DNA of 64,000 bases. Origin: Candidatus Omnitrophota bacterium. Lineage in GTDB: Bacteria > Omnitrophota > Gorgyraeia > 2-01-FULL-45-10. The position numbers were made by a program, and so were the translations under genes. Below the pieces are notes generated by a model. That model did no database searches. It was not told the origin of the DNA and saw nothing but the letters and a program-made list of their open reading frames with translations. The stretch covers positions 2,004 to 66,003 of the forward strand of contig JAQUSB010000003.1 of NCBI GenBank assembly GCA_028715345.1. Reading direction: 5' to 3'. This document shows positions 13,484 to 39,931 of the stretch, piece after piece (position 1 is the stretch's first letter; each line of letters starts with the position of its first letter).

Positions 13484-14740
13484 TTACGCCTGTATGAATA
13501 CTTCCCGCGCCGCCAGCGCCGCCGCGCCCATAACTATAGCATCCTCGCCCAGGAAGCTGGGCACGATCTTCACTATACTGGCAGGCTCTTCGAACGCGAA
13601 CCTTTTGACCGAACTCTTTATAGGCTCGAAGAGAAGGTCTCCGGCGGCCTCCATCCCTCCCCCTATTATGACCATAGAAGGGTTGAGAAGGTCTATCATA
13701 TACGCTATCCTCACGCCGAGGTCCCTGCCGGCTTTGTCTAAAAGCTCTATAGCGAGCTTGTCGCCTTTTTTAGCGGCGCCTATGACTGCCTCTTTGGTTA
13801 TGGCATCGGCCTTACCTTTCGCCGTATTGAGTATTTCCGTTGCCTGGCCTTTCTGAACGGCCTTCTTCGCCTCATATACGACGCCGAGGTCCACTCCCCA
13901 CGGCCGCAGGTAAGCGAATTCTTTTATATACCCTTTATCGTCCGACTGCAGCCCGTTATAAGCTATCTGCGTCTCCCCCGCGCAGCCGCTCGACCCCGTA
14001 TAGACATCGCCGTTTATCACCATCCCGCACCCGACATCGGAGTACACGTAGATAATGTTATCGACGTCCGCGGAAGGATTTAGCGTCCTCTCGCCGAACG
14101 CCGCGCAGGAGGCGTCGTTGCCTATATATACGGATATATTGAATTTTTGCTCTATGGCTTTGGTGAATTTCAGGAAACTGACCCTCGTCCTGCCCCTGGC
14201 CGGATCCGTATCGCGGATAGTGCCGGACGGGTAATCTATTATGCCCGATATGCCTATGCCTATATTTTTTATGTCCGGCGCGTTTATTTTGCTCTTCGCG
14301 ATGACATCTTCTATCGCCTTCGTTACCTCCGGTATCAGTTCCTCCATATTCACGGGAGGGCGCGGCACCTTAACTTTGGCTATCACATTGACCTTGAGGT
14401 CCGCGACTATGGCCAATATATTCGTCGGGCTTATATCCACCCCGACGACATACCCGCTCTTCGCGTTCAATTCCAGAAGCTCCGGGCGCCTGCCGCCGGA
14501 AGAGGTGTCGAGCCCGACCTCGAGTATTATCCTTTTATTTATATAATAATCCGCGTAATTCGTAACGGTAACGATATTCGACCCGAGGACCCTCGATATC
14601 TCCGCCCTGGATATGGGCCCTTTCCTGCGTATCAGTTCCAGTATGGCAAGGTTGCGCCTCTCCCTGTCCTGCGTAATATGAAAGCTGAAGACGTTATCGC
14701 TATTCATTACCACCCCATATGTTTGGTTTTGGTAACGCAT
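13484..14740 (-). CDS. ROK family transcriptional regulator / sugar kinase (NagC/XylR-like)
   Basis: N-terminal winged-helix region (LAILELIRRKGPISRAEISRVLG), then a ROK glucokinase-like domain (GVDISPT, GIGISG, GNDASCAAFGE, CGCG). Confidence 0.65.
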   Translation of the reverse strand: MRYQNQTYGVVMNSDNVFSFHITQDRERRNLAILELIRRKGPISRAEISRVLGSNIVTVTNYADYYINKRIILEVGLDTSSGGRRPELLELNAKSGYVVGVDISPTNILAIVADLKVNVIAKVKVPRPPVNMEELIPEVTKAIEDVIAKSKINAPDIKNIGIGISGIIDYPSGTIRDTDPARGRTRVSFLKFTKAIEQKFNISVYIGNDASCAAFGERTLNPSADVDNIIYVYSDVGCGMVINGDVYTGSSGCAGETQIAYNGLQSDDKGYIKEFAYLRPWGVDLGVVYEAKKAVQKGQATEILNTAKGKADAITKEAVIGAAKKGDKLAIELLDKAGRDLGVRIAYMIDLLNPSMVIIGGGMEAAGDLLFEPIKSSVKRFAFEEPASIVKIVPSFLGEDAIVMGAAALAAREVFIQA

Positions 14741-15465
14741 ATATCTTTTAAGTATATGGTCGCCACGGAACTGTTGCCGGCCGTTAAAGTGCCGAATTCG
14801 AACCTTACGGCCGATATATTCTTCGTGTCTAACGCCTTTTTTATCGGCTTAAAATTGAGCGTGTAAACCTGCCAGCTTTTCGACAGATCGGATGATATAT
14901 CCCTCTCCGCCCTGTACGTCCTATTGTCCGAATCGACCAGCACTACCGTGAGGGATTCGTCCCCCGACTCGCCCCGGGCGGTATATTTTATATCCAGCTT
15001 AGTAAGGTCGAGCGGCTCTTTCAGGCGTATTTCATAATTTGCCCATCCGCTGCCCCTGGAATTGCACAGGATAAGCTCGTCGCCCTTGGCCCTGCTGAAC
15101 GTCCTGGCGTCGCCGGTGAAACCGGTATACTTTACTATGTATTTGTTCGGTTCCGATCCTTTTACGAGGTACAGGCCTTTCTCGCGGATGCTCCCGAATT
15201 TATCCGTCTCCGACGCCGCAAAAGACGGTATCTCGCCTAGTATCTTTATATTCACGTCTATATTGCTTTTGAAAAAAAGCAGCACTAACGCCAAGGCAAT
15301 AGCCGCGGCGGCTATGGCCCACGGGAACTTAGAAGGCGGCTTATGCCCTATCTTCTTATTTTTGTCCGAAACCTTGAGGTATATCTTTGCTATTTCTTCC
15401 TGGGCCGACGAACGCATTCTCTCTTTCTTAAAAGGGTTGTTCAGAGTCTCTATAATTTTACTCAT
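14707..15465 (-). CDS. Membrane-anchored protein with CBM-like beta-sandwich domain (paralog family 1 of 4)
   Basis: Start set at ATG 15463-15465 (MSKIIETLNN...), which overlaps the permease stop as TAATG. One transmembrane helix, then a domain sharing motifs with the N-termini of genes at 17407, 27581 and 29942. Confidence 0.4.
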   Translation of the reverse strand: MSKIIETLNNPFKKERMRSSAQEEIAKIYLKVSDKNKKIGHKPPSKFPWAIAAAAIALALVLLFFKSNIDVNIKILGEIPSFAASETDKFGSIREKGLYLVKGSEPNKYIVKYTGFTGDARTFSRAKGDELILCNSRGSGWANYEIRLKEPLDLTKLDIKYTARGESGDESLTVVLVDSDNRTYRAERDISSDLSKSWQVYTLNFKPIKKALDTKNISAVRFEFGTLTAGNSSVATIYLKDICVTKTKHMGW

Positions 15466-16349
15466 TATCCTTTCATTCCCGTAAGTTTTATCCCCTCGAT
15501 AAAGAATCGCTGATTGAACAGGAATACTATTATGATGGGAACCATCGTTATGAGCGAGCCCGCCATGAGCAGACCCCAATCCGGCTGGGCGTACTGGTAT
15601 AGCTCCTGAAAATATGCCAATCCTATCGGAAGCGTCCTCTTCTCTATGGAATTAGTGACGAGAAGCGGCCACATGAAACTGACCCAATTACCGAGCGATA
15701 CGAATATGGTCAAAGTGGCGAGCGCGGTATTGGAGAGCGGCAGTATCACTCTCCAGAATATGCCCCACAGGCTGCACCCGTCTATCTTTGCCGCGTCCTC
15801 GAGGTCACGCGGCAGGGTCATAAAGAACTGCCGCAGTAAAAACGTCCCGTAAGCGGTGAATATCGACGGTATTATAAGCGCCTTGTAAGTGTCGATCCAT
15901 CCGAATGTCCGCATCAGCGCGAATACCGGTATCATCGTGACCGAACCGGGTATCATCATCGTCGCAAGGTAAGCGAAGAATATCTTGTCCCTGCCGGGGA
16001 ACTGCAGGCGCGCGAAAGCGTACGCGGCGAGAGCGCTCGTAGCCACCTGCCCGAACGTGACCGCTACACATACGAATATGCTGTTTAAGTAAAACCTGGC
16101 GAACGGCACCACCTTCCAGACATCTACGTAATTTTTCCAATAAACGGGATCGGGAAGCCAATGGATATCTTTGAGGTTGAATATGAATACCGAATTGTAC
16201 GATTTAAGCGAGGTCGAGATCATCCATAAGAACGGAAGTATCATGGTGACGCCGCCCAGTATCAGGAAGCCGTATATAAGGCAGGCCTTCAAGATCTTTT
16301 TCTTCCTCGCGATCTTAACCTTATTTGCCAATGATCCTTCGTCACGCAT
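15465..16349 (-). CDS. Carbohydrate ABC transporter permease (MalG-like)
   Basis: 294 aa, 6 transmembrane helices, EAA-type permease loop. Confidence 0.7.
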   Translation of the reverse strand: MRDEGSLANKVKIARKKKILKACLIYGFLILGGVTMILPFLWMISTSLKSYNSVFIFNLKDIHWLPDPVYWKNYVDVWKVVPFARFYLNSIFVCVAVTFGQVATSALAAYAFARLQFPGRDKIFFAYLATMMIPGSVTMIPVFALMRTFGWIDTYKALIIPSIFTAYGTFLLRQFFMTLPRDLEDAAKIDGCSLWGIFWRVILPLSNTALATLTIFVSLGNWVSFMWPLLVTNSIEKRTLPIGLAYFQELYQYAQPDWGLLMAGSLITMVPIIIVFLFNQRFFIEGIKLTGMKG

Positions 16350-16364
16350 AACGCGGGCCTTCTA

Positions 16365-17309
16365 TTAGTAGTGTGAATATTGGACCAATTTGCCGCCGAA
16401 CCGCCAATTGAACATGGTCACCAAAAATACGATCACAAAAACGAACCACGCTATGCCGGCCGCGTAACCTACGTGCTGCCAGCTGTACAGGTGGTTGTAT
16501 ATAAGATATTCCAAAGTCGTCGTCGACCTGTCCGGGCCGCCCCCGGTCATTATATATGCCTGCATGAAACCGCCCTGGAACCCGCCGATAACAGACATAA
16601 CCGCTATAAAAAAAGTGGTAGGGCTTATCATCGGCCACGTTATCGACCAGAACCTGTCCCACGACCCCGCTCCGTCTATCTGAGCGGCTTCGTATAATTC
16701 ACGCGGGACACCCTGTAGGGCCGCCAGGAACAATATCATGTTATACCCGCCCATCATTATCCACAGGCCCATGATCATAAGCGACGGTTTGGCCCATGCC
16801 GTGGACGTAAGCCAGGGAATGCCCTGAAAATGGATGCCGAATAAATTGCCGAATTTTATGATCATATTGTTCAAAAGGCCAAAATCGAAATTATATATCC
16901 ATGCCCACAAAAGGCATATCGCCACGCCGTTTGTAATGGTGGGCAGAAAATAGATCGTTTTGAATAAATTTATCCCTTTTATCTTATTATTTACTATCAA
17001 AGCCAGCCCTAACGACGCCATTATCTGCAAAGGTATTATCATCATCAAATACAACGTATTACCGAGGCATTTCCAGAAAAGAGGATCGTTTGCGACAAAA
17101 GAGGCAGATTCTTTGTGAAATCCTATAAGATTAATAAAATTGGAAAGGCCGATAAATTTGGGGGGCGACAGCATATCCCAGCTGACAAAGCTTAAAACAA
17201 GCGATAATATCACGGGCACAAGGGTAAAAACCGCGAATCCCAGGAAATTCGGCAATACAAAGAGATACCCGGCGATCGCTTCTTTTTCAGAACTTTTTAA
17301 TTTTATCAA
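16365..17309 (-). CDS. Carbohydrate ABC transporter permease (MalF/UgpA-like)
   Basis: 314 aa polytopic permease with the EAAQIDGA motif. Confidence 0.7.
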   Translation of the reverse strand: MIKLKSSEKEAIAGYLFVLPNFLGFAVFTLVPVILSLVLSFVSWDMLSPPKFIGLSNFINLIGFHKESASFVANDPLFWKCLGNTLYLMMIIPLQIMASLGLALIVNNKIKGINLFKTIYFLPTITNGVAICLLWAWIYNFDFGLLNNMIIKFGNLFGIHFQGIPWLTSTAWAKPSLMIMGLWIMMGGYNMILFLAALQGVPRELYEAAQIDGAGSWDRFWSITWPMISPTTFFIAVMSVIGGFQGGFMQAYIMTGGGPDRSTTTLEYLIYNHLYSWQHVGYAAGIAWFVFVIVFLVTMFNWRFGGKLVQYSHY

Positions 17310-17406
17310 CTAAGTATCCTCAAAATCCTCTGAAAAGATAACAATTGGGATAATATTTGAGAAACTTCTGTAGAATATTATATCACAAGAAGGATAAGTT
17401 ACAATA

Positions 17407-19506
17407 TTATTCGAAGAAATTTTCGACTTTGAGGAGCTCTTCGGCTTTTTTGGCTATAGGGTCGGCGTGGAACCTTTTTCGTATCGCACCGTTATTGAGG
17501 TAATTGTTCATCGCGATGAATGACATCGCCTGGTCCAGGCACAGGTATTCTATCGCCACTTTTCCTGTCTTAACATTTATAGCGTCATAAAATCCGTATT
17601 CGCCGTACGCGTTATAGCGCGACAGCATTTCGCGTATATTTTTAACGGCTTCTTTAGGGATGAATTCAAGGGCGAGGAATGTGGCATGAGGAGTAACGAC
17701 TCCCGCCTTGTATCCTTTCATCCCCAGCGGTTTGGCGCCGTATTCCGAGTAACCGCCTTCCGGGACACAGGACGGGGACATCCCGAAGACCGGGTATTCC
17801 AGCTTCTCAAGCGCGTACTTAGCCTGGACCCTGGCGTGAACTTCGTCGTTTATGCCGAGCCCTTTCTTCGCCAGCCTTTTCTCGTCTATGATGATCGTCG
17901 GCATAAGCGCTTCGAACATACTGCCGCCCCAGCTCGGGATAAATTTCATGTCTTCATACGTATAGTATCCGCCGATAGTTTTACATCCGAGATAAACTTT
18001 CTCTTTTCTGTCTTTCGGCGTCTGTGTCTGCCAGAACCATGTCTCGGGGAATGTCCTGTCGAGCGCGAACCAATGCTCTTTAGGCACATCGCCTTTGCCT
18101 ATCGCTATATAACTTATCGCGCGCGGTTCTGTATAAAAAGCACCGTAGTGGTATTCGGAGTAATAATCTATATTCGTGTAAAAACCGTGATACATCTGCC
18201 GCTCCACCGGGTCATAGAAGAATGAGAAGTCCATAGGGTCTATGAGTTTCTGGCATCTCTGCCCCAGCTCTTTGGGAAAAGCGTTCTTCGCCACTATGAG
18301 CCCCGCGGCAAGCCACCCGGAATCGACGAACGATATGAAGTTGCTCGTCTCCTGGAATATGGTTACGTCGTAATAATTGTAAGGAAAGCCTTTATATTTT
18401 TTGAATTTTTCTATCGAGCCGATGGTCCGGCTGAGCCTCGCTACGGCATCTTCTTTCGTAATGAACCCGAGGTCATAAGCGGAAACAACGCACATCATAT
18501 AAACGCCGATATTGGTGACGTTGGTATAATCCCCTATCTTCGTATCTTTGGATACCGTCGCGGTTTCGCTGAATTGGATATTGTCAAGCGGCAGGCCGTA
18601 TTCTTTATCCGTGATAAGATCGAAATATTTCCAGGTGTCCCTGGCGATCTGCCTTATCAGCGCTTTGTCGTCCCTGGGGAATTCTTTCTTTACAAAAACT
18701 TTGGACGGAAAACCGCCGAGGCGTGTTATGAGAAATTTCGCGAACTCCTCCGCACCCGTCCCCTCGGCCGTCTTCTTTTTGCCGTGCATAACGACATCGT
18801 TTATGCTCGGCCCGGGGTTGCCGGTATTAACAAAAGCAAAGTCGTCGAAGTACAGCGTACCCTCGGACGAATCGACTCTGCGCTTCTCGAAGGTTATAAC
18901 CATCTCTCTTAAACCGGACCAGTCGTTTATGCCGTTCATCACATTGAGGGGGATCGATATCTTCTGCCACTTGTCCGTCACGCCCTTCACTATATAGCTT
19001 GCCTTTATCGTCTCCTCGCGCCCTTCGCTGTCCGGCTTATACTTACTGAATTCTATCTTGAACAGGGTCGGGAAACCCTTTTTCGCGTCGCCCTTGACCC
19101 AGAATTCGAAATGGTCGTATTTCGACGCGTCGAAATCCCTCAACTGCGTCCAGAATCCGTTAACGGCATTGGAGGGAGAATTTACATTGTATTCTATCTT
19201 CAGAGAAGAGCCTGCTTCCCCGCGCCTTACCAGGTTATCCAGGGCCGCCGTGACCCACTGGGATTTGTCTTCGGGATTACTTTCCCATGTGCCGGATTCT
19301 CCGTATAAATTATTGATAAGGCTGTCGCGGTCGAAATCCGCCACTACGGCGGAGGAAGGCGTTTTTGCCTGAGGCTGGGCTTTCGAAGGCGTTTCGGAGG
19401 AAACGGTCATGCCGGCGCTCATTATGAAAAATACCGCCAAGAGCAGAAGTATACGGAATGTTATTTTTTTGACCGGCATACGATCCCCCGCATTAGCTGA
19501 CTTCAT
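17407..19506 (-). CDS. Secreted protein: CBM-like N-terminal domain plus (alpha/alpha)6 glycoside-hydrolase-like domain (GH144/DUF3131-like, tentative)
   Basis: 699 aa with signal peptide. N-terminal domain is paralogous to the one in gene 29942. C-terminal helical barrel-like region with YGFYDA and LDQAM motifs. Confidence 0.45.
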   Translation of the reverse strand: MKSANAGDRMPVKKITFRILLLLAVFFIMSAGMTVSSETPSKAQPQAKTPSSAVVADFDRDSLINNLYGESGTWESNPEDKSQWVTAALDNLVRRGEAGSSLKIEYNVNSPSNAVNGFWTQLRDFDASKYDHFEFWVKGDAKKGFPTLFKIEFSKYKPDSEGREETIKASYIVKGVTDKWQKISIPLNVMNGINDWSGLREMVITFEKRRVDSSEGTLYFDDFAFVNTGNPGPSINDVVMHGKKKTAEGTGAEEFAKFLITRLGGFPSKVFVKKEFPRDDKALIRQIARDTWKYFDLITDKEYGLPLDNIQFSETATVSKDTKIGDYTNVTNIGVYMMCVVSAYDLGFITKEDAVARLSRTIGSIEKFKKYKGFPYNYYDVTIFQETSNFISFVDSGWLAAGLIVAKNAFPKELGQRCQKLIDPMDFSFFYDPVERQMYHGFYTNIDYYSEYHYGAFYTEPRAISYIAIGKGDVPKEHWFALDRTFPETWFWQTQTPKDRKEKVYLGCKTIGGYYTYEDMKFIPSWGGSMFEALMPTIIIDEKRLAKKGLGINDEVHARVQAKYALEKLEYPVFGMSPSCVPEGGYSEYGAKPLGMKGYKAGVVTPHATFLALEFIPKEAVKNIREMLSRYNAYGEYGFYDAINVKTGKVAIEYLCLDQAMSFIAMNNYLNNGAIRKRFHADPIAKKAEELLKVENFFE

Positions 19507-19577: not shown

Positions 19578-22500
19578 TTAACCGGGCCGCAGGACTTTTA
19601 TCGGGCTCTTCGTTATGTCTCTTTGAATGCGGCTTATTTTAAGTTCGCCCCTCGGTTTATCTATATCGTCCGGCAGGACCAATTTGTTCTTGGCCAGGGA
19701 AGCTCCTAAAACGCCTTCCATAGCCTGGCGCAGCATCCAGCCTGCCGCACCCGTATAGCCGTGCCATATCATGCGCCCCTGGTCGAATGTGGTCAGGATG
19801 TCGGCCGATTGTTTATTAGGCTGCCCGCCGTACAGCTCCACCTCTTTTACGCGCGGTATCGGCGAAACTTTGAGCCACAGCCTGTACGAAGTCTTTCTAT
19901 ATTCATCGGCTTTGGCGCGGTCGCCTCTGCGGTCGAATTCTTCGGCGATAAGGCGCGCCGCCCTTACAAGCCACTGGACTCCGTGGCAATACATACCGTT
20001 CTCGCGCACGCCTTCCGGATATTTGCTGCTCCTGCCGAGATACGGCTTGGTGTCTTCGCGCAGGGCCGGCCACCCGAGGAGGATAGCGTTCTCCCTCTCC
20101 AGGACGTCCAGCGCCGTATTGAATACCGTCAGGCCCCTTTCGAAATTGATGCCTGCTTTCACCGCCCACGACGCCGTCAGCGCGTCTATCTCCCAGACGC
20201 CGCTTCCTTTTATGCCTATCTCCGTGCCGTCGTCATGGAACGCGCGCAAATACCTGTCGCCTCTCCACGTCTTCTCGAGGCTTGTTTTAAGATCTTCCAT
20301 CCTCTTTACGTAATACGCTTTTTTCTCCTTGCCTTCCTTCATCTCTATGATATTGACCATCTCTTTCAGGATATAATAAAGGAAGAAGCCGAGCCATACG
20401 CTCTCGCCCTTGCCTTCGCTTCCTATCTCGTCGAGCCCGTCGTTCCAATCGCCCGTCTGGATAAGCGGCAGCCCGTTCTTGCCGGTCCTGTCCTTTAAGA
20501 TGAGGTCTACGGACTTCATGCAGTGCTTGTATATGGTGTCGGATCTCGTCGTCCTGTGGTACAGATGCCCCCAGCCCTGCTTGTTCTTCGGGAGCTTCGC
20601 GAACGGGAATTGCGATATGACGTACGAGGCCATCTCGTCGAGTATCGACGTATCGCCCGTCGTCCTTATATATTCGACAACGCCCCAGACAAGCCATACA
20701 GGATTGTCGGAAGCGTGGGACCTGCATGAGAACGCAGTCCGTCCGTCCGTCAACGTAAAGAACCAGTGGAAGACGTCGCCTTCGATGAACTGCTGGGAGG
20801 CGTGCAGTATTATCTGCTTGCGCGCCAGCGCCGGATCGACCCATATGAGGTTGACGGTATCCTGCAGCTGGTCCCTGAAACCGTAAGCGCCGCTCGTCTG
20901 GTAGAACCCGCGCCTCGCCCATATACGTTCGGCAAGGGCCTGGTACTTCAGCCAGTCCTGGTAGCGGTCGAATTCGGGCTTGTTCGTTTCGACTTTGAGC
21001 GTATCCATAAGGCCGAGCCACCACTTCTTTGTCTGGGCCAGGCTCTTACGTACCTCGTCCACGTTCTTATATTTTCTGATTATTTTATCCGCTTCTTTCC
21101 TGTCGTCGCATTGGCCCATTACGACCGACATGGTATGCTCTCCGTGCGCGGGTATAGTGACCTCCTCCAGGAACGCGGCCACCTGCGAAATATCGCCGAA
21201 ACATTTCCTGTCGGATGAGCCTTCTTTTACCATATACGGGCGCACGACATCGCCGCCGCATCCGAAGAACTTGCCGCGGCTCGTTTCGACCGCAGGCGAC
21301 TTCATAGAAGTGGAAACGAACGCCCATCCTGAGCGGAAAATGTTACGGGGGTTATTGAAGAATAACGACCCGGTCGACCTTTGATATTTCATCATCAGCG
21401 GGCCGGCCCGTTCGGGCTGGAATCCCAGCACCATCTGGAAATACGGGACAATGCGCAATTTCTTGTCGCGGTCCGAATTATTCTTCACCGTGAGCAGATA
21501 TAAACCTGCAGGGTCGTCCGGCGGGACAAATACCGTAAGCTCAGTCGAAACAGAACCGCGGGCCATACGGAAGATAGCGGTCCCGTCGACGCTGAACTCG
21601 GATTCGCATCGGGCGCTCTTATCGCGGAGCGGCAGATACGTCGGCGAGTACCAGTCGTTGCCGTCCGGGTCGTACAGGTAGAACGCTTCCGTCGGTATCT
21701 CTTTTGTGACTATGTCCGGCCAGTCGGGCGTCAGCCTGTTCTGCTGTGAATTACCGTTAGAGGACGTGTGAAGCCCCCTGTTCGTGACCATGATCGAATG
21801 GACTGCGTTAGATACGGCATGGTCGATAGGGCGCGGCGTGAAGGGCGTATGGACGACCAGTTTTTTGCCGTCCTGGCTGAACGTGGAATACGGCTGCGGC
21901 GTCCCCGGGGGGATCTCGCCGTGGCCGATAAGGACAGACGCTTTTTTGGCCGCAGCGGCCGCTTTCGCTTTGGGCGCGGCGCTCTGGGGCTTCAGATGTT
22001 GGGCGATCAATTCGAGAGCCGTCTTCTTATTTTTCGTAAACCCTATCATGAAGCGTACCTTCACTGAAGCCTTCGGAGCGATCTGTGCATTGACTGCAAG
22101 GCTTCCTATAGGATCGAATGTCGGATACGGGTTCGTATCGCGCGCCGTCAGGAAATTGAGCGTCTCGAGTATTCGCGGCGACCAGATACTGCGCACGCGG
22201 CCGATGAAATCGACTCGTGAAGTGAGGAACCCTTCCGGCGCGGCATCGCTGGCCAGGATACCCATCGTCTTCGCGCTCTTCTGGTACGCGAGCACGGCGT
22301 TGGAAGAACTTACGTATTCCATCTCCGGATATAACCTGGCGTATTGCGTATGGAACCTGTCATGGATACCGCCGACAAGCACCCATTCAAGGTACGGGAC
22401 CACTTTAAGTTCCCTCGCCTTGTCCGTGGTATTTTCGAGAGTGACTTCCCATATCTCGGCGTTGCTTTCTTTATCCGGCAGGCTTATCTTTATATTCGTC

Positions 22501-29860: not shown

Positions 29861-29890
29861 GATATTTATGGAGGCTGTGTTTAATTTGGG

Positions 29891-32110: not shown

Positions 32111-32782
32111 TTATTCTTTCAGTATATATCCCCTGCCGCGCACCGTCTGTATCAGTTTTTTCTTTGAGTCCGGGTCTATTTTATTGCGCAGGTAATTTAT
32201 ATAAACATCTATCACGTTAGTGAACGTGTCGAAGTCTATATCCCATACATGCTCGGATATCATGGTACGGGTCACGACCTTGCCGGCGTTGCGCATGAGA
32301 TATTCCAGAAGCGCGAACTCTTTCGCCGTAAGTTCTATATCTTTCCCCGCCCGGGTGACTTTATGCGTATTCAGGTCTATTACGAGGTCGCCGACCTGCA
32401 GTTTCGACGCCTGCGCCTGTTCGCTCTTTTTCCTGAGCATAGCGCGCACTCTCGCCAATAGCTCTTCGAAAGCGAACGGCTTGGTGAGATAATCGTCCGC
32501 TCCGGCGTCGAGGCCTGTGACCTTATCTTTGACGGCGTCTTTTGCGGTAAGCATTATTATGGGCATGAGTACTTTATCGGCGCGCAGTTTTTTGCATACG
32601 GTTATACCGTCAAGCTTGGGCAGCATCAGGTCGAGCAGGACGAGGTCGTAATCGTTCGTTTTGGCCAAAAACAGGCCGTTCTCGCCGTCATTAGCGATGT
32701 CGACCGCGTAGCCCTCTTCTTTAAGGCCCCGCTTTATAAAATCCGCGATCTTCTTCTCGTCTTCCACTACCAGTATGCGCAT
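32111..32782 (-). CDS. OmpR-family response regulator
   Basis: REC domain (MRILVVEDE...DLVLLDLMLP) plus winged-helix DNA-binding C-terminus. Confidence 0.8.
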   Translation of the reverse strand: MRILVVEDEKKIADFIKRGLKEEGYAVDIANDGENGLFLAKTNDYDLVLLDLMLPKLDGITVCKKLRADKVLMPIIMLTAKDAVKDKVTGLDAGADDYLTKPFAFEELLARVRAMLRKKSEQAQASKLQVGDLVIDLNTHKVTRAGKDIELTAKEFALLEYLMRNAGKVVTRTMISEHVWDIDFDTFTNVIDVYINYLRNKIDPDSKKKLIQTVRGRGYILKE

Positions 32783-32789: not shown

Positions 32790-35162
32790 TTACCCCATTA
32801 TCACTTTTACGTCGTGGGACCTGTTGTCGGACATATCTTTTACGATATTAGAACTTATTTTTTTGCCGTCAACGTGAATCTCCCTTACCCCTTTTGATAT
32901 ATGGCGCGGGTTCTTTACCTCTATATTATACACCGCGTTACCGTACCTGCGCTTCATTTTAAACCCGCTCCACTTAGAAGGTATGCAGGGGTCTATCAAT
33001 AACCCGTCGTAAGTAGGCCGCACGCCCAGGATCCAATTGGTCGATACCCTGTAAAGCCATCCCCCGGAGCCCGAATACCACGTCCACCCGCCCGCTCCGT
33101 AATCGGCCGCCTGCGGGCCGTTGGTATTGCCGGGGGTCACGTACGGCTCACATTTATAAAGATCCGGTTCCATCCCGCGCTTCACCGGACAGAAACTCGA
33201 ATACATCTTGTATGCCTTGTCGCCGCGGCCGAGATAACATTCCGCCAATACCGCCCAGCACGCCGCGTGCGTGTAGACCGCGCCGTTCTCCCTCACGCCG
33301 GGCGCGTAACGCGTGATGTAGCCGATGTGCTCGTCCGGCACCGTAAACCCGGGAGCTATCAGAAGCGGCCCGTAATCTTTCTGCAAATATTTCCACACCG
33401 ATTCCATCGACTTTATTTTGCGCTCTTCGGTCGAAACATCGTTGAAGACGCCCCAGGTCTGCGTCATAAGATAGATCTTACCCTCTTTACACTTACGGCT
33501 TCCCACGATCTTCCCGTCGTCCCTGGTCGCCGCGAAATACCACTCCCCGTCCCAGCAATATTTATTTACCGCTATCCTGAGCTTTTTGGCGCGGGCGATG
33601 TAATCCTTCGCCCTCTTCTTGTCATGCTTCCTGCCGGCGATCTCCGCGAACCTTAAGAGTATGTCATAAAGGAACTGCCCAAGCCATGTGCTCTCGCCCT
33701 TCCAGCCTGTACCGATGAGATTAAACCCGTCGTTCCAGTCGCCGGCCCCTATCAAAGGAAGGCCGCGCTTCGAGAACCGGGAGAGGACCTTATCTATCGC
33801 TTTACAGCAATGCCGGTAAAGCGGCTCTGCCGGGCCGTCGACATACGGCACTTTCGTATCGAGGACCTTGAAATCTTTCGTCTCTTCGAGATAATTTAAT
33901 AATATATAAACCATCCAGAGCATATTGTCCGTCATATCGGTGATGGCGCCAATCCGGGTAAGCTGGTGCCACCAGTGGTGGACAATGCCGTCTTTGAGCT
34001 GGTGCTCCGCATGCATCAGTATCTGCTTTTTACAGAGCTCCGGCTTCAGCGGCAGGAATACCTGGGAATCCTGGAGCTGGTCCCTGAAACCGTACCCGCC
34101 CGAGAACTGATAGTAAGCCGTCTTCGCCCAGAGCCTGCCTGCTATCGTCTGGTATTTGAGCCATCTGTTCGTAAGTATGTCGAATGCCTCGTCCGGGGTC
34201 TTTACCTCGAGCGGCGCAAGAAGGTCGTCCCAAAATTTTTTCGTCTTCGCGAGTGCCTTATCGGCCTCTTTTACACTGTGATATTTTTTAATAAGCTTTT
34301 TAGCCTGGCCCTCATCCGCCATGTGGCCTATCGTGTAAATGATGACTTTACTTTCGCCGGGCTTCAGGTCTATATTCACCCGGAAGCTCGATATCGGGTC
34401 GTACCATTCTCCGGCGCTATTCGTCAAAGCGTCATTATCCATCGCGGCGGGATTTGCAATGCTCCGATACATCCCGAAAAATCTTTCTTTATCACCCTCG
34501 TATGAGGCGCATCTTTCGCTTATGCTCGAAAAACCCGCGATCGGGTGCTCCGTCATGCCGGTAGATATGTATTTGGGAACGAGATGTTCCTTCTTTTTAC
34601 CGAATAACGCGTTCAGGTCCTTGTCGAACCGCGTGGTTATGAAAGTCTTCTGGAATTCGCGGTGCGTGTCATCGGAATTGCCCAGGCACCATTCGAAATA
34701 TGTCGTGAGATCGAGGCGCCTCTTTTTGGTATCCTCGTTCTTTATCGTTATCTTCCATATCTCGAGGTTTTCGTCCGGCGGTATGAATACGGCGGCTGAA
34801 GACCTTATGCCGTTTATTTTCGAAGTGATGATCGTATATCCGGCGCCGTTGCGGACCTCATATAGATCGAATTTCGGGCAGAGCGGCTTCCAGGCAAGCG
34901 ACCATACTTTTTTCGTATCGCGGTCCCTTATGAATATATATTTGCCCATATCATCGCGTATAAGGTCCTGGAGCCAGCGCGTAATCCTTGCTACGGCGGA
35001 ATTTTTCCACCAGCTGTATCCCGATCCCGCCTGTGATATTATCGCTCCGTATTCGCCGTTCGACATTATATTGATCCACGGCCTGGGCGTGTCGGGGCGC
35101 GTTATGACGAATTCTTTCCCGTCATCCGTGAAATACCCGTATTTGGTCTTGAATTTACTCAT
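32790..35162 (-). CDS. Cytoplasmic GH94 glycoside phosphorylase (cellobiose/chitobiose/1,2-beta-oligoglucan phosphorylase family)
   Basis: 790 aa with no signal peptide. YQFSGGYGFRDQLQDS and GAGDWNDG motifs. Confidence 0.75.
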   Translation of the reverse strand: MSKFKTKYGYFTDDGKEFVITRPDTPRPWINIMSNGEYGAIISQAGSGYSWWKNSAVARITRWLQDLIRDDMGKYIFIRDRDTKKVWSLAWKPLCPKFDLYEVRNGAGYTIITSKINGIRSSAAVFIPPDENLEIWKITIKNEDTKKRRLDLTTYFEWCLGNSDDTHREFQKTFITTRFDKDLNALFGKKKEHLVPKYISTGMTEHPIAGFSSISERCASYEGDKERFFGMYRSIANPAAMDNDALTNSAGEWYDPISSFRVNIDLKPGESKVIIYTIGHMADEGQAKKLIKKYHSVKEADKALAKTKKFWDDLLAPLEVKTPDEAFDILTNRWLKYQTIAGRLWAKTAYYQFSGGYGFRDQLQDSQVFLPLKPELCKKQILMHAEHQLKDGIVHHWWHQLTRIGAITDMTDNMLWMVYILLNYLEETKDFKVLDTKVPYVDGPAEPLYRHCCKAIDKVLSRFSKRGLPLIGAGDWNDGFNLIGTGWKGESTWLGQFLYDILLRFAEIAGRKHDKKRAKDYIARAKKLRIAVNKYCWDGEWYFAATRDDGKIVGSRKCKEGKIYLMTQTWGVFNDVSTEERKIKSMESVWKYLQKDYGPLLIAPGFTVPDEHIGYITRYAPGVRENGAVYTHAACWAVLAECYLGRGDKAYKMYSSFCPVKRGMEPDLYKCEPYVTPGNTNGPQAADYGAGGWTWYSGSGGWLYRVSTNWILGVRPTYDGLLIDPCIPSKWSGFKMKRRYGNAVYNIEVKNPRHISKGVREIHVDGKKISSNIVKDMSDNRSHDVKVIMG

Positions 35163-36478
35163 CTGTATCCCGCAGACTTATCTTTAAGCAATGCGTTTAC
35201 TTTGTTCATAAAACTCTTTACCGCATCCTGCACCGTCTTCTTGCCGCCGAATACAAGGTCGAGTTCCGGGAGTATATACATCTCCTTTGCTTCGCGCCAC
35301 GCCGGGTGGAACGGTTCATAGATAACGTACTTCATGGCGTCATTCAGCATCTTCTTATTTTTCGGGGGAAGGTCGCCGCCTATCCAGTGCGGCCCATTGG
35401 CTATCTCTATTATCGCCGGCTGGGCAAGCCCGGTATCGGCGAGCATCGCCTGGGCATCCTTACACGTCAGCGCTTTCACCACCTGGTAAGCTTCCTTCGG
35501 ATGGGCGGTGCCCTTCAATATGCAGTAGCCGGACCCGCCCGTCCCGAAAGCCCGGATACCTCTGGGCCCTTTAGGGAACATCGCGACGTCCCAGTCGAAT
35601 CCCTGGACCTTCCTCAAACCCGGCGTTTCCCATATCCCGGAAGCGAACATCGCGAGGCGGCCCGTAGCGAACATGCCCTGCACGCCCATCGCCAGGTCCG
35701 TCATAGTTATCGAGGACGGGTGGACCTTGTATTTATTTATAAGGTCCGAATAGAACTGCAGGCCGGCGATAGATTCTTTCGAATCGAGCGTGCATTTGGC
35801 CGGGTCTTTGACCTTATCGACAAGGCTCCCGCCGAATGAATAAACGAAATTCTGCCACGCCCACGCGTAAAACCCGTATTGGACCACCCTGCCGTCGGGA
35901 TCGAGCTTCGTCAGCTTCTTCGCTTTGTCCAGCATATCATTCATATCCCAATCATCCTTAGGATACGGGACGCCGGCCGCATCGAACAGTTTTTTATTAT
36001 AATAAACGCAGGCGAACGGCGCGGTGTCTCTCGGGATCGAGTAAAGCTTACCATCAACGGTGAATCTGCCGATTATCTCGGGATAAAAAGCTTTTATGTC
36101 GAAGTCGGGGTCGTCTTTTATGTAAGGATTGAGGTCCAGGAGGACGCCTTTAGTCTGGAACGTGACGAAGAGGTCGACTTCCGTGCAGATGATATCGGGC
36201 GCGGCCCTGCCCGCGATCCTCGTCAATAATTTATCGACGTAACCGCGATACGGCGTATGTTCGAGCCTTACCAGTATCTCGGGGTGTCTGGCCTGCCACC
36301 CGGCTATCAGATTCTCCATGATGTTAACTTCATCGGGGGCGCCCCAGAATGCCACTCTTATTTCTACGGGTTTGGAAGCGTCGGATACTTTTTTAGAGCA
36401 GCCTGTTACGGAAAACGAAAAGAACGCCGCGAGGACTAAAGACAATAATATCACGCGTCTCTGTTTCACCTTTGCCAT
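35159..36478 (-). CDS. ABC transporter extracellular solute-binding lipoprotein (family 1, sugar-type)
   Basis: 439 aa. Lipoprotein signal with lipobox VTGC. Overlaps the GH94 gene stop by 4 nt. Confidence 0.65.
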   Translation of the reverse strand: MAKVKQRRVILLSLVLAAFFSFSVTGCSKKVSDASKPVEIRVAFWGAPDEVNIMENLIAGWQARHPEILVRLEHTPYRGYVDKLLTRIAGRAAPDIICTEVDLFVTFQTKGVLLDLNPYIKDDPDFDIKAFYPEIIGRFTVDGKLYSIPRDTAPFACVYYNKKLFDAAGVPYPKDDWDMNDMLDKAKKLTKLDPDGRVVQYGFYAWAWQNFVYSFGGSLVDKVKDPAKCTLDSKESIAGLQFYSDLINKYKVHPSSITMTDLAMGVQGMFATGRLAMFASGIWETPGLRKVQGFDWDVAMFPKGPRGIRAFGTGGSGYCILKGTAHPKEAYQVVKALTCKDAQAMLADTGLAQPAIIEIANGPHWIGGDLPPKNKKMLNDAMKYVIYEPFHPAWREAKEMYILPELDLVFGGKKTVQDAVKSFMNKVNALLKDKSAGYR

Positions 36479-36519: not shown

Positions 36520-37881
36520 TTACATGAACAGATAGAATTTGAAATAGACCGAGGACATATAGTCTTCTATGTTATAGTAGTAATTACCTCTATAACCGAC
36601 GTCGACCCTGATAAGGCCGGGCGCGTAATATTCCAGGCCTGTCAGGAAGGCCGTATTATCGAAATCGGACATATTCGTGCCGCATGAAAGGTCGAGGCCT
36701 GTCTGGAACCAGAGCTTATCGTAAAATTTATACTGCAGCCTTGTTTCCACACCCACCCACCCTGCGCTGTCGTTAACGGTATTTTTTTGGTTAGGATCGT
36801 ATGAAGGGGCAGTATTATCCCATTCGTCCCTGAAGTCGAGCACATCCCTGAAAGTGATAGTGCCGTTAAGTTTTGTGGTAAAGTCGTGGCCTATCCTTAT
36901 CTGCATCTCGTATTTGCTGAATTCGTTCCTAAAAGGCATGTAACAATCCAATGAATAGCTGATCCTGGGAATGACGCTTGTTTTAAGATCTCTCGATTTC
37001 ATCCTCAATTCCGCGGCGTAGAAATAATGGTCGGGGTTATATGTAAAGCTGGATTTGGGACGTTTGCTTTTAAAGTATTCGAATTGACCGAACCATTCGC
37101 ACCTTTCACTCGGAGCAAGCGAAAAATATGTAAAATAGGTATGCCTTGTCTCATAGTACGCGTTAGTGGACCCGTCGTTCTTGGCATTCATCGTAGAATA
37201 TCTGTACCCGATGTTTATAGTCTCGAACCAGTCTATACCGGGTATCTTTTTGGAATGCATAAGGAGTATCTCATTCTGGTCCCATTGTTCGTGCTTATAG
37301 TTGACGTTCCTGTTAGGCTCTTCTAAATATATAGGAAATTGATTCTGATATATGTCGCGGTAATCGTGAGTATATCGTATCTGTCCCTCTTTGTTCTTGG
37401 GGTCGCTCATGGTCACTTCTGTGCCGTATGCCCTTGTAAAGATAGGTTTAAGCTGGCTTCTATAGTCAGCTGCGTTATTCCAGGGCTGGTTATTATGCAG
37501 CCAGCGTATCTTTTTGGCGTCCATTATATAAGCGTCGATAGGCCTTGCTTCCTGATATATCTCCACTCTTTGCGCTATGGTAAAATATTTGGCAAGCCTC
37601 AAACCCTCGAAAGTCTCATAATAAGGGGCGGAACCTATCCTGTTTATATCTATCTTTTTCAGGATCGGCTCGGGTTCCGGGATAATTTTTCTCTCTACGC
37701 CTTTTGAAGTTATCTCTATGCCTTCGGCGGCAGGCTGTCCCAGTTCGGAAGTAGTATAGCCGGTGTTTACGGGCTTTGCGGCAGCGGTTTTATCATCGGC
37801 GGAAAAAGCGGGGCCCGCAAAAAAAGAAGCGCAGAATATCACGCTCACGGCCAAAGCGACTGCAAAGTTATCTCTGTTCAC
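36520..37881 (-). CDS. Putative outer-membrane beta-barrel protein
   Basis: 453 aa with signal peptide. Alternating Y/F-rich amphipathic strands. C-terminus is aromatic-rich (YFKFYLFM). Confidence 0.3.
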   Translation of the reverse strand: MNRDNFAVALAVSVIFCASFFAGPAFSADDKTAAAKPVNTGYTTSELGQPAAEGIEITSKGVERKIIPEPEPILKKIDINRIGSAPYYETFEGLRLAKYFTIAQRVEIYQEARPIDAYIMDAKKIRWLHNNQPWNNAADYRSQLKPIFTRAYGTEVTMSDPKNKEGQIRYTHDYRDIYQNQFPIYLEEPNRNVNYKHEQWDQNEILLMHSKKIPGIDWFETINIGYRYSTMNAKNDGSTNAYYETRHTYFTYFSLAPSERCEWFGQFEYFKSKRPKSSFTYNPDHYFYAAELRMKSRDLKTSVIPRISYSLDCYMPFRNEFSKYEMQIRIGHDFTTKLNGTITFRDVLDFRDEWDNTAPSYDPNQKNTVNDSAGWVGVETRLQYKFYDKLWFQTGLDLSCGTNMSDFDNTAFLTGLEYYAPGLIRVDVGYRGNYYYNIEDYMSSVYFKFYLFM

Positions 37882-38009: not shown

Positions 38010-39245
38010 TTACCGGAAGCAAAGACCCATCCACTTCTTTATGGGGCCGGTCTGCATAAATTTCTCCCAGACGAGCCCTGTCATATAGTTTTCCAGCATT
38101 ATAACGGTGATCCCCTGGTCGATGCCCAGGTACTCTTCCGACCACCAGTTCAGGTCAAGATTAAAGGCGTCCTTGAAGCCGTATTTGCCGTAGAGGAAGC
38201 TTTTATGATTATCGTAAAGATATTTCAATCCCGCCAGCGACTTTTCCCAATCGAAAACTATCGAGCCGGCCATCCCGGACGGCGCTATCGTCCCGTCGTT
38301 CATCGCCTCGCCCGGTTTGGCGCCGTACCCCTTGTAGCCTTTCGGCCCTATGCACGCCGTCAGCCCCCAGGAATTTTCACCGTACGTTTCGTATTGCGCC
38401 GAGCCCTCGATGCAGAATTCGCGATTCGCCTGAACGGCACTGACAGAATTCGTGTAATAATTTATGCCGCTCACATCTTCGTAAAGGCCGCGGAAATCGA
38501 TGAATGCCTGCGAATACTGATAAGTGAATATGCTCCCCGTATAGCAATAGATAAGCCTGTGGCCGGCATACTCCCCTTCGGGCCGCGACCATTCATACCA
38601 CGATTCGGCCGGTATCGGATGGGTCTCGGAACCTATCGCGAGCGCATACAGTATCATGGCCTCACTGTAAGAATCCCAATAATAAGGAAGGAACCCGTAT
38701 TCGGGCCGCCACCCCATGCACATTATCTTGCGGCCATTCATCATCCACTGCCAGTCGACCCTGTCGTAGATCTCTTTGGCAAGTGTTTCGGCCTCGGTGC
38801 CTTTGAAATATTCTCCCGCGAATAATGCCCCGGCTAAAAATAAGGCCGTATCTATGGATGAAAGCTCGGAGTTCCACGCTCTCGAGCCCGTCCGCATATC
38901 GAGGAAATGGTAGAAGAAACCGTGTTCGTTAGGGATTGTGTCGCGGAACGTGGTCAGGATTTTAACAACGCGTTCGTAGGCCTGGCCTTTCTCTATCCAG
39001 CCGCGCGAATCGCCTATGCAGAGCGCCGTAAGGCCGAAACCCACGACGGCAACGCTGCAGGGAGCCCCGGGGCGCGAAGAGTCCTTTATAAGGCCATTGG
39101 CTGTATTCGATTCTCCGGCAAAATAGTGAAGTGTGTCGTATTCAAGTTTGGTAAGGAATTCTTCGTCGCTCGGGTAGGCAGGCCGGATAAGCGAAAGGAA
39201 AGATATCACCGTCAATAATATTAAGAATGGCTTTTTTATCGTCAC
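38010..39245 (-). CDS. Secreted GH144/DUF3131-like (alpha/alpha)6 hydrolase-like protein (catalytic domain only)
   Basis: 411 aa with signal peptide. Paralog of the catalytic region of 27581 (GFFYHFLDMRTG, YTGSIFTYQY, YGFKDAFNL, GWIEK). Confidence 0.45.
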   Translation of the reverse strand: MTIKKPFLILLTVISFLSLIRPAYPSDEEFLTKLEYDTLHYFAGESNTANGLIKDSSRPGAPCSVAVVGFGLTALCIGDSRGWIEKGQAYERVVKILTTFRDTIPNEHGFFYHFLDMRTGSRAWNSELSSIDTALFLAGALFAGEYFKGTEAETLAKEIYDRVDWQWMMNGRKIMCMGWRPEYGFLPYYWDSYSEAMILYALAIGSETHPIPAESWYEWSRPEGEYAGHRLIYCYTGSIFTYQYSQAFIDFRGLYEDVSGINYYTNSVSAVQANREFCIEGSAQYETYGENSWGLTACIGPKGYKGYGAKPGEAMNDGTIAPSGMAGSIVFDWEKSLAGLKYLYDNHKSFLYGKYGFKDAFNLDLNWWSEEYLGIDQGITVIMLENYMTGLVWEKFMQTGPIKKWMGLCFR

Positions 39246-39931
39246 GTCTTATATTTTAATATTACGGAATCTATGCCGGAGAGTATATCCTTTAAACGTT
39301 TGCCGTCTTCTGCAGGTATTGAACCCTTGTCGGCCAGCGCATTTATCCGCTCTTCCAGCGCCATAGAGTCGGTTTTGATCTTCTTGATGTCTTCATGCAG
39401 GCCCTCCACCATCTCTTCGAGAGCCGTCGCAGCGCTCCTCATCTCATCGCCGCGCCGTATCTTGAAATTGACTAAGAGGTCGCCGCGATGTATGGCCTCG
39501 GCGGATTTCTCTATCCTGTACATAGGCCCGGCTATCCTGTGTGATATGAATATGCCTGCGAAGAATATCAATACGGAGAGTATTATGACTTTCGGGATGA
39601 GCGATCTGTTCACGGAACGCAGAGCGTCTTTTAACGCGGCCTTATCCTGCGAGCTGAGCAGTTCGGCCTCGCGGAATATTTTTTCTAATCTGTAATCGCC
39701 CTTGCCGTATCTGACCTGTTCGTAATCGGTAATGCGGTTCACGTTCTCGAGGTTCTGCGAAACTTTAAAGTGGGAAAAGTTCTCGATGATCGAACCCCAC
39801 ATCCCCATGTAAAGCCCGAAACCCGTAACGAACATTACGACAAGAAGGGTGAGTACTGTCAGGACGGTGTATTTAAGCTGGAACCTTTTATTGACAAGGT
39901 AATTTTTTCTTTTATAGGTCGTTTCGGCCAT
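39242..39931 (-). CDS. Membrane protein with two transmembrane helices and a HAMP-like cytoplasmic helix, no output domain
   Basis: 229 aa. The second transmembrane helix is followed by HRIAGPMYRIEKSAEAIHRGDL, a HAMP-like amphipathic linker. Confidence 0.35.
   Translation of the reverse strand: MAETTYKRKNYLVNKRFQLKYTVLTVLTLLVVMFVTGFGLYMGMWGSIIENFSHFKVSQNLENVNRITDYEQVRYGKGDYRLEKIFREAELLSSQDKAALKDALRSVNRSLIPKVIILSVLIFFAGIFISHRIAGPMYRIEKSAEAIHRGDLLVNFKIRRGDEMRSAATALEEMVEGLHEDIKKIKTDSMALEERINALADKGSIPAEDGKRLKDILSGIDSVILKYKT

Follow-up and report, generated by a model that had tools for sequence, protein, structure and literature searches.

β-1,2-Glucans, which comprise cyclic glucans and the osmoregulated glucans of the periplasm, rank among the major polymers of the proteobacterial periplasm and are known as symbiosis and virulence factors; to our knowledge, enzymes for their degradation have been discovered from 2014 onwards only. 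The gene clusters described for their utilization in Listeria innocua (the 1,2-β-oligoglucan phosphorylase (SOGP) Lin1839, a GH3 glucosidase and the transporter Lin1841-43 for sophoro-oligosaccharides), and in Chitinophaga pinensis and Xanthomonas (clusters with GH144 β-1,2-glucanases, SGL) share a common logic, which consists of an extracytoplasmic endoglucanase, uptake of sophoro-oligosaccharides by an ATP-binding cassette (ABC) transporter of the CUT1 type, a cytoplasmic phosphorylase that belongs to family 94 of the glycoside hydrolases (GH94) and releases glucose-1-phosphate, and a regulator of their own. Here we describe a locus at positions 13484-39931 of a 64-kb stretch (the window) of a contig from a metagenome-assembled genome of Candidatus Omnitrophota. 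Based on sequence comparisons, this locus is likely to be a β-1,2-glucan capture and catabolism system of these diderm bacteria, an interpretation to which we assign a probability of roughly 60%. It includes a membrane protein of 2,043 amino acids (aa), hereafter called the giant.

Positions refer to the window, and genes are named in short by their left coordinate (e.g. 17407 stands for 17407-19506). Gene calls were checked by Pfam, NCBIfam and PDB sequence searches, and profile-profile comparisons were made with hhalign. All genes of the window are encoded on the minus strand, and the locus packs 16 genes closely together, with -4 to 128 nt between neighbours. Every gene listed in the original prediction for this DNA, which had been made from the sequence without database searches, was found at the stated place, on the minus strand, most of them confirmed by Pfam or PDB matches. 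Nearly all genes of the locus have homologues from Omnitrophota, which identifies the source organism as a member of this phylum, and the product of 32790 is 100% identical to a protein from a deposited Candidatus Omnitrophica genome. About 11 other Omnitrophota genomes carry a syntenic version of the entire locus, in the order solute-binding protein (SBP), GH94, carbohydrate-binding module (CBM) protein, GH144, tetratricopeptide repeat (TPR) protein, giant, GH189-like enzyme, permease, permease, CBM protein (14707) and ROK protein. From the recurrence of this gene order we conclude that these genes did not come together by chance. The glycoside hydrolase domains that Pfam assigned to proteins of the locus were PF10091/DUF3131 and GH94 alone, and the NCBIfam scan yielded no family for any of the glycoside-hydrolase-like proteins or for the giant.

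Judged by their sequences, two of these proteins are secreted GH144 β-1,2-glucanases. The product of 27581 (27581-29899) combines a CBM11/30-like domain, a middle domain and a GH144 catalytic domain (PF10091, E = 5.8e-64), and 38010 (38010-39245) encodes a single-domain putative endo-β-1,2-glucanase (PF10091, E = 6.7e-70). With the whole catalytic domain aligned, both matched the structures of XcSGL (XCC2207, PDB 8xul; 7.1e-66 for 27581 and 2.5e-70 for 38010) and CpSGL (5gzh; 1.5e-42 and 9.5e-53, respectively), which are characterised endo-β-1,2-glucanases (PMC12102758). More generally, the characterised GH144 enzymes act on β-1,2-glucan (PMC12102758, PMC11842490). The W-x-P-E-x-G-F segment of the XcSGL alignment is kept in 38010, and 27581 has the similar WSPERGF. 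The two proteins are 43% identical over the catalytic domain and thus correspond to the two close paralogues that had been recognized among three secreted (α/α)6 hydrolase-like proteins; the count of three is borne out as well, since PF10091 (the SGL-clan family 'Glycoamylase') was found in 17407, 27581 and 38010.

The third of these proteins, 17407 (17407-19506), is also secreted and consists of a CBM11-like domain (residues ~45-230) followed by an SGL-clan (α/α)6 domain (Pfam PF10091, PDB). It had originally been regarded as GH144-like, which we had to revise. Its best PDB matches were the cyclization domain of TiCGS from Thermoanaerobacter italicus (8wy1, 3.5e-44) and residues 978-1497 of the cyclic glucan synthase Cgs of A. 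tumefaciens (8rf9, 1.6e-41), whereas the matches to GH144 structures were weak (1e-8 to 1e-11), by which an assignment to GH144 was ruled out; the match to 8xuj was weak, too (2.4e-13). The protein is therefore nearest to GH189, but it lacks the nucleophile of this family. We compared the 17407 family, which has 121 members that are 62-88% identical and all from Omnitrophota, with the catalytic residues described for GH189, i.e. the acid/base E1356, E1400, the nucleophile E1442 and H1536/H1537 (PMC10834661). E460 (corresponding to the acid/base E1356) and E532 (corresponding to the pKa-modulating E1400) are invariant in 121 of 121 members, and the same is true for D395, the equivalent of CpSGL E142 and Cgs D1104, so that the general acid and the candidate base are both retained. 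However, the nucleophile of TiCGS aligns to Pro578 (GMSPS vs GISES), a position occupied by Pro in 120 members and by Ser in one, never by Glu or Asp, and the His-His pair is replaced by Leu657-Asp658, which is kept in at least 118 of the 121. In addition, the helical insertion of about 165 residues, which sets GH189 apart by a long α5 and extra α4-α5 helices (PMC12102758), is missing, as the alignment passes from chain residue 143 straight to 309 without intervening query residues. Secretion and the attached CBM also distinguish 17407 from GH189 enzymes such as TiCGS, which its catalytic domain otherwise resembles in sequence. Because this residue set is that of an inverting hydrolase by the rules of the SGL clan (PMC12102758), we do not file 17407 in GH189 but place it as a clan member beside GH189 and GH193. 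A role as cyclase or transglycosylase was ruled out by the missing nucleophile, and we predict that 17407 is an inverting β-1,2-glucanase and not a retaining transglycosylase, with the features expected of the inverting hydrolases of GH193 (SkSGL) and GH144.

The soluble phosphorylase, 32790 (32790-35162), comprises 790 aa with GH94 domains (Pfam E-values of 8e-112 and 4e-81; bit scores, above the Pfam thresholds, of 272.6 and 374.4 for the supersandwich and the (α/α)6 domain) and has neither a signal peptide nor a transmembrane segment (TM), in line with the cytoplasmic GH94 protein that had been proposed at this position. The GP1-type N-terminal sandwich found in the giant is absent from 32790; the presence of this module does not establish membership in the SOGP group. 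In the PDB, 32790 matched Cgs over GP2-3 (3.1e-158, 464 bits) and, in a full-length alignment, the cellobiose phosphorylase of C. thermocellum (CtCBP, 3qde; 6.4e-146, 489 bits). Across 554 columns in common, its identity amounts to 34% with Cgs, 32% with the giant and 31% with CtCBP, and its catalytic domain has 155 identical positions with Cgs versus 133 with CtCBP. The motifs GFRDQLQD, GDWNDG and PGVRENG..YTHAA match Cgs, whereas CtCBP has GFRDSNQD, DWNDC and PGYKENAGIFCHNNA; in the motif comparison, VRENG..YTHAA stands where CtCBP has YKENAGIFCHNNA. Both the catalytic Asp (Cgs D2528, within GDWNDG) and the RD motif (Cgs D2393) are present. For RaCBP, a Cys near this site, C485, has been reported to influence recognition of the acceptor 2-OH. 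The PDB search returned no SOGP structure for 32790 (E ≤ 1e-5) or for the giant (E ≤ 1e-3), and neither of the two GH94 proteins resembles this phosphorylase of the Listeria system.

We further inspected the gene neighbourhoods of eight homologues of 32790 from other assemblies (53-55% identity). A PF10091 gene was located at a distance of up to three genes in seven of the eight, and an SBP gene directly upstream in six; ROK and CBM11 genes were often near, and a GH35 gene was found once. Because of this gene context, which is the stronger evidence, and the Cgs-type motifs, we propose that 32790 acts on β-1,2-linked glucose, most simply on sophorose or short sophoro-oligosaccharides (Sopn). 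None of the papers searched uses the term 'sophorose phosphorylase'.

These and related neighbourhoods yielded some further observations. In locus L084 (JGI 3300001594; genes 1071-3488 and 3493-5427), a GH35/GH42-like gene adjoins a CBM30 + PF10091 gene together with ROK, SBP and GH94 genes; GH35 is the family of a β-1,2-glucosyltransferase from an SGL cluster of Ignavibacterium (PMC8861115). In L082, L083, L087 and one ENA contig, a four-gene module consisting of SBP, GH94 (~810 aa), a CBM + GH189-like protein (~680 aa) and ROK, with no permease or ATPase genes, is located beside yidC-gidA-parA-parB, on the ENA contig near dnaA, which suggests that this module is a core trait of Omnitrophota across the phylum. 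In L085 (JGI 3300009373; genes 1-4725 and 12033-18388), the genes flanking an SBP-GH94 pair are an open reading frame (ORF) of 10,011 aa and one for a surface-type protein of 2,323 aa with TIG, FG-GAP and He_PIG, at the end of which a PF10091 SGL-clan domain forms a β-1,2-glucanase module in an adhesin-like giant protein.

The second GH94 protein is the giant itself (19578-25709), in which a signal peptide, a periplasmic CBM11-like domain, a membrane domain of about 19 TMs and a cytoplasmic GH94 part (GP1+GP2+GP3) follow each other. The CBM11-like β-sandwich covers residues 40-185 (25155-25592), the polytopic membrane domain residues 194-973 (22791-25130), an extra degenerate GH94 supersandwich, which corresponds to GP1 of Cgs, residues 980-1256 (21942-22772; BLASTP, Pfam), and the GH94 supersandwich with the catalytic (α/α)6 domain residues 1274-2013 (19671-21890; Pfam 9e-67 and 1.6e-64, 225.6 and 218.6 bits). 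According to hydropathy and AlphaFold secondary structure, the CBM is outside and the GH94 part inside, with positive loops alternating consistently and a strongly basic stretch following the TM region ahead of the cytoplasmic GP1-GP2-GP3. Two confident structural models were obtained, with a pLDDT (predicted local distance difference test) of 89.1 and 89.4 and a pTM (predicted template modelling score) of 0.86 and 0.88. The GH94 part scored 372.6 bits (2.6e-110) against the phosphorylase domain of Cgs, which is specific for β-1,2 linkages, and 139.5 bits (5e-40) against cellobiose phosphorylase. Residues 980-1256 are 25% identical to residues 33-309 of 32790 (BLASTP, E = 4e-15) and contain two GH94_b-supersand stretches (Pfam); Cgs residues 1541-1802 (GP1) match the same module, and the Rossmann-like insert of Cgs is absent from the giant. 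The GP subdomains of Cgs have been likened to LpSOGP (PMC10901819).

The catalytic motifs GFRDQLQD, GDWNDGLDE and YPEGVRENGMYCHG of the giant, which contain the residues corresponding to Cgs D2393 and D2528, show a conservation of 90% or more among 58 full-length relatives. Within the membrane domain, TWYNQDG in a predicted periplasmic loop, RWGLWM[SA]P and DHMGLRVATLVN in helices, and E573, D576 and R584 on the cytoplasmic face are invariant; these motifs are aromatic and polar in character, with WYNQDG at the periplasmic mouth and RWGLWMSP and DHMGLRV in TMs. The membrane domain matched no Pfam family and contains no internal repeat. No GT84 or GT2 domain was found in the giant or in the scanned genes of the locus, the giant matches only residues 2032-2759 of Cgs and none of residues 1-2031, and a fused cyclase (GH189) domain is absent. 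Since both the GT84 and the cyclase domain are missing, we ruled out that the giant is a Cgs; it cannot be a UDP-glucose-dependent cyclic glucan synthase.

When 1.84 billion representative sequences were searched with a profile, 586 proteins related to the giant were found at E ≤ 1e-3 and 247 at E ≤ 1e-30, with full-length members of 1,780-2,250 aa. In a scan with one genome per GTDB species, the family was present in at least 546 genomes, mostly of Omnitrophota but also of Elusimicrobiota, Auribacterota, Sumerlaeota, Chlamydiota and FCPU426. In the periplasmic part of the relatives, the number of tandem CBM11-like domains ranges from none to five, which is what one would expect of a protein that captures a polymer. 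In L022 (CP070780.1) and L075, this part is a separate ORF of 246 or 199 aa upstream of a giant of 1,825 or 1,767 aa, which could be a natural split or a frameshift. Among 80 loci fetched for the context of the giant, FCPU426 locus L049 has the order GH144, giant, SBP, permease, permease. The Elusimicrobiota loci (L074, L075, L078) show a GH189-like enzyme adjoining the giant, a giant with GH144 and CBM protein, and permeases close to the giant, and the further Omnitrophota loci L024 and L055 combine the giant with a GH189-like enzyme or GH144. In Auribacterota (L035), the only such neighbours are two CBM-like proteins. The literature search retrieved no description of a membrane-embedded GH94 protein of this build.

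In addition to the modules of the hydrolases and of the giant, the locus encodes a secreted stand-alone CBM11-like protein (29942-30592; Pfam CBM_11, 2.5e-8, 34.6 bits at a cutoff of 27). Its domain shares 44% identity with residues 49-225 of 17407 and 30% with residues 55-237 of 27581, and hhalign related these three domains with a probability of 100%. A fourth copy had been attributed to 14707, whose C-terminal domain turned out to be a remote relative of the three clear ones (hhalign 89-94%, E = 1e-6 to 1e-7), and the N-terminal periplasmic domain of the giant represents a fifth, likewise remote copy (hhalign 90-93% to 29942 and 17407). The protein encoded by 14707 (14707-15465; no Pfam match) is membrane-anchored with one TM, located at residues 85-103 of the long ORF that starts at TTG 15579, and a C-terminal periplasmic β-sandwich (TM prediction, hhalign). 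However, the TTG start overlaps the upstream permease gene by 115 nt, whereas ATG 15465 is preceded by an AAAGGA ribosome-binding site and overlaps the permease stop by one base (TAATG). The start is therefore most likely ATG 15465, which would make 14707 a type-II membrane protein with a periplasmic sandwich.

A CUT1 importer set is present, consisting of a family-1 SBP and two BPD_transp_1 permeases. The solute-binding lipoprotein 35159 (35159-36478; Pfam SBP_bac_1, 7.9e-40) has the lipobox VTGC, and its best PDB match is an arabino-oligosaccharide binder (6rjy, 1.8e-43); by its sequence it is a generic CUT1 oligosaccharide binder. The CUT1-type sugar permeases are encoded at 15465-16349 (Pfam BPD_transp_1, 2.3e-18) and 16365-17309 (9e-13), and the orthologues of the former are 80-93% identical in the syntenic loci. 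Downstream of 14707, a ROK-family protein with an N-terminal winged helix (13484-14740; Pfam ROK, 1.4e-41, and a weak HTH_24 match) has an ATP motif that reads as degenerate (GVDISPTN) and is for this reason probably the regulator of the locus; ROK genes also flank homologous GH94/SGL modules in other Omnitrophota. A two-component system consists of a sensor histidine kinase (30634-32109) with two TMs, a periplasmic loop of ~165 aa, HAMP, HisKA and HATPase_c, and an OmpR-type response regulator (32111-32782; Pfam).

The protein 25739 (25739-27568) is a secreted and probably lipidated TPR/BamD-like protein (Pfam TPR_6 and YfiO, NCBIfam BamD and YbgF, both weak), which in the syntenic loci is always encoded between a GH144 gene and the giant. 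Pfam domains were thus found for each of the lipoprotein, permeases, TPR protein, two-component system and ROK protein that had been listed in the original prediction. The gene proposed to encode an outer-membrane protein (36520-37881) exists too, and its product is possibly an outer-membrane β-barrel, an identity which is deduced solely from a signal peptide, 16.6% aromatic residues and amphipathic strands; it has no match in Pfam, NCBIfam or the PDB, and an orthologue is located upstream of the SBP gene in locus L033. Finally, the product of 39242 (39242-39931) is a small membrane protein that has a HAMP domain (Pfam, 1.9e-7) and two TMs; at its stop, this gene shares 4 nt with the start of the GH144 gene 38010-39245.

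The sequences establish which domains are present, how the proteins are oriented in the membrane, that the gene order recurs and that the catalytic motifs are kept. From the glucanases, the phosphorylases and their context, we infer that the substrate of the locus is β-1,2-glucan and that the flux is directed into the cell, and catabolism is the best-supported function, with importer and regulator genes as its signature. The central idea of SGL endoglucanases acting together with GH94 and an ABC importer thus stands, with the above corrections concerning 17407 and the likeness to SOGP. Linear or cyclic β-1,2-glucan, for which periplasmic glucans of neighbouring or prey Proteobacteria would be a plausible source, may be bound by the CBM modules in the periplasm or at the surface and cut to sophoro-oligosaccharides by the GH144 enzymes and the GH189-like hydrolase. 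These would be imported by the ABC system with an ATPase encoded elsewhere, and phosphorolysed to glucose-1-phosphate by the 790-aa GH94 protein, which would represent a sophorose/short-Sopn phosphorylase of a new subfamily. The contribution of the giant is the most speculative part. Its periplasmic CBMs may hold a longer glucan chain, which the ~19-TM domain would conduct across the inner membrane and from whose non-reducing end the Cgs-type GH94 domain would remove glucose-1-phosphate, so that phosphorolysis would pull the chain in. We propose such a coupling of capture, passage and phosphorolysis because the CBMs outside are linked to an intact Cgs-type phosphorylase inside, because the linking membrane domain is very large and highly conserved, and because the giant recurs beside glucanases and importers. 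That the giant is a new inner-membrane machine, a phosphorolysis-driven polysaccharide importer, which together with 32790 and 17407 serves a phylum-wide scavenging trait, is a tentative proposal, to which we give clearly less than even odds.

Several observations weigh against the interpretation of the locus as a whole or of the giant in particular. About 60 of the 80 giant loci contain no β-1,2-related neighbours, clustering of the flanking genes in the non-syntenic loci revealed no conserved partner, and such lone giants fit a housekeeping role, e.g. the synthesis of periplasmic glucan for the cell itself, no less well than a dedicated role in catabolism. A Foldseek search with the model of the giant matched the sandwich alone and no structural relative of the membrane domain, whose function as a channel is conjectural, and since ABC import is already present, a second import route is not obviously needed. 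In line with the original prediction, no ABC ATPase gene was detected in the window: the search of all six frames of the 64 kb for the LSGGQ signature and a GxxGxGK[ST]T Walker A motif and the Pfam scan of the flanking genes for ABC_tran were both empty. The window also encodes no β-glucosidase. The SBP matched the Sopn binder Lin1841 of Listeria only at rank 14 (1.2e-15, 60 bits) and is not an orthologue of it. In a neighbour-joining tree and quartet test, the standalone family grouped with CtCBP, and the giants with Cgs, in 199 of 200 bootstraps; this tree was calculated with CtCBP as the only cellobiose phosphorylase and without chitobiose, cellobionic-acid, laminaribiose and SOGP phosphorylases. 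The original prediction had named a grouping of the GH94 proteins with cellobiose phosphorylase as an argument for another substrate, and formally this grouping was found for 32790, though not for the giant. More generally, every specificity is assigned by homology or context.

The grouping with CtCBP bears most directly on the possibility that the locus serves cellodextrin, chitin or another β-glucan, with 32790 as an ordinary cellobiose or chitobiose phosphorylase and PF10091 proteins that act on the other polymer. Indeed, 32790 shares the length and the three-part build without GP1 of these phosphorylases, its homologues are named 'cellobiose phosphorylase' in source annotations, and the best PDB matches of the SBP are not Sopn binders. 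We nevertheless consider this very improbable: 32790 is just 31% identical to CtCBP, carries Cgs-type motifs by the catalytic residues and is tied to SGL-clan genes, and not to cellulases or chitinases, in seven of eight genomes, the GH94 part of the giant is of the Cgs type, and the GH144 pair matches characterised β-1,2-glucanases (XcSGL) at 1e-66 to 1e-70 (PMC12102758, PMC11842490). As Pfam gave the locus no glycoside hydrolase family besides PF10091/DUF3131 and GH94, we rejected its reading as a cellulose or chitin locus. An opposite direction of flux would result if the locus served the biosynthesis or remodelling of the cell's own periplasmic β-1,2-glucan, similar to osmoregulated glucans. 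The giant would then synthesise the chain from glucose-1-phosphate and export it, its CBMs would hold the product, the GH189-like enzyme and the GH144 enzymes would trim it as OpgG/OpgD do beside OpgH, and the importer and the second GH94 protein would recycle fragments. The occurrence of the giant in at least 546 species genomes, mostly alone and without catabolic partners, would be explained by this role, and its GH94 type is that of the biosynthetic Cgs, although no GT84/GT2 domain accompanies it and the SBP, permeases, ROK protein and soluble cytoplasmic phosphorylase are hallmarks of uptake. Phosphorylases work near equilibrium, and cytoplasmic phosphate favours breakdown. Similarly, the gene of the giant directly adjoins the GH189-like gene in Omnitrophota and one Elusimicrobiota genome, echoing the domain set of Cgs and the opgGH pairing, and the GH189-like family is very conserved (62-88% identity over >100 clusters), but the enzyme has no nucleophile for transglycosylation or cyclisation. 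On balance, we regard own-glucan metabolism, although it is the main competing explanation, as unlikely.

We are slightly more sceptical still about a giant without any translocation function, in which the membrane domain would serve for sensing or signalling, for docking on the ABC permeases with phosphorolysis of the imported oligosaccharides at the membrane, or for an unrelated enzymatic activity, and the rest of the locus would still degrade β-1,2-glucan. The channel is conjectural, its fold is without a relative, and further signalling membrane proteins (histidine kinase, HAMP and TPR proteins) as well as an ABC importer are encoded in the locus; such an importer adjoins the giant in L049 and L078. 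However, most giants have no adjacent ABC genes, and ~780 residues with 19 TMs and invariant motifs on both faces exceed an anchor. Moreover, the membrane domain is fused in every member to an intact GH94 domain and usually to CBMs, bridging the membrane. We therefore retain capture and catabolism of β-1,2-glucan as the function of the locus, with the translocation-coupled role of the giant as its conditional extension.

Around the locus, there are genes for hydrogenase maturation, an NADH dehydrogenase, an agmatinase and an arginine decarboxylase. The ROK gene is followed downstream, at 12498-13460 and 9911-12513 (both minus strand), by genes for an M48 peptidase that contains an EF-hand-like insertion, for a protein of 343 aa to which Pfam assigns no family, and then for agmatinase and pyruvoyl arginine decarboxylase. 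In locus L081, a lone GH94 gene is followed by a matching trio (346 aa, arginase family, PvlArgDC), so that the β-1,2 locus seems to represent an insertion or expansion at a position that is itself conserved. The next gene upstream of the locus, 40035-45686 (likewise on the minus strand), encodes a secreted protein of 1,883 aa without a Pfam family, which has weak relatives (24-25%) near the giant in L063 and L074. It is preceded by an ORF of at least 6,032 aa (45890-63988, minus strand), which probably runs past the end of the window. This ORF contains many hydrophobic segments and scattered domains (ribulose-phosphate 3-epimerase-like, three GNAT acetyltransferases, HAD/S6PP-like, histidine phosphatase and HEAT repeats) and resembles the 'giant ORFs' that are typical of Omnitrophota and poorly understood (PMC10066038).

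The main genomics paper on Omnitrophota does not mention glucans, phosphorylases or glycoside hydrolases. Our results indicate that these ultra-small, probably host-dependent and uncultured bacteria may carry a conserved β-1,2-glucan module of SBP, GH94 protein, GH189-like enzyme and ROK protein across the phylum, and they point to three putative enzyme types: a membrane GH94 protein with an unmatched fold, a GH94 protein of disaccharide-phosphorylase size tied to β-1,2 loci, and a secreted GH189 relative that should be a hydrolase and not a transglycosylase. If the giant is an importer, scavenging of β-1,2-glucan would be a core trait of Omnitrophota with periplasmic glucans of prey or hosts as the likely source, and a translocation-coupled mechanism would represent a new way of moving polysaccharide across a membrane.

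Compared with the clusters of Listeria, Chitinophaga and Xanthomonas, the locus differs in that its phosphorylases are not of the SOGP type, its SBP is not Lin1841, and genes for a GH3/GH1 β-glucosidase and an ATPase are absent, and it adds the GH189-like hydrolase, the CBM11-like proteins, the TPR lipoprotein, the two-component system and the GH94 giant, in a host from the phylum Omnitrophota. The giant is similar to Cgs with regard to its inner-membrane location, its cytoplasmic GP1+GP2+GP3 part, whose nearest relative is the GP domain of Cgs, and the GH189-related neighbouring gene. In contrast to Cgs, it has no GT84 domain, no fused cyclase and no Rossmann-like insert between GP1 and GP2, and instead of six TMs it has about 19 of an unmatched fold plus one or more periplasmic CBMs, with a GH189-like partner that is secreted and lacks the nucleophile. 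By analogy alone, a cytoplasmic catalytic domain working on the end of a glucan, joined to a polytopic membrane domain with periplasmic partners, is also the arrangement of the processive polysaccharide synthase-translocases BcsA and OpgH, of which an importing giant would be the mirror image, with uptake driven by phosphorolysis of the bond and not by ATP or the proton-motive force. Thus, the locus as such follows the known logic of SGL, GH94 and ABC transport, and it is the giant alone that might turn out to be a machine of a new kind.

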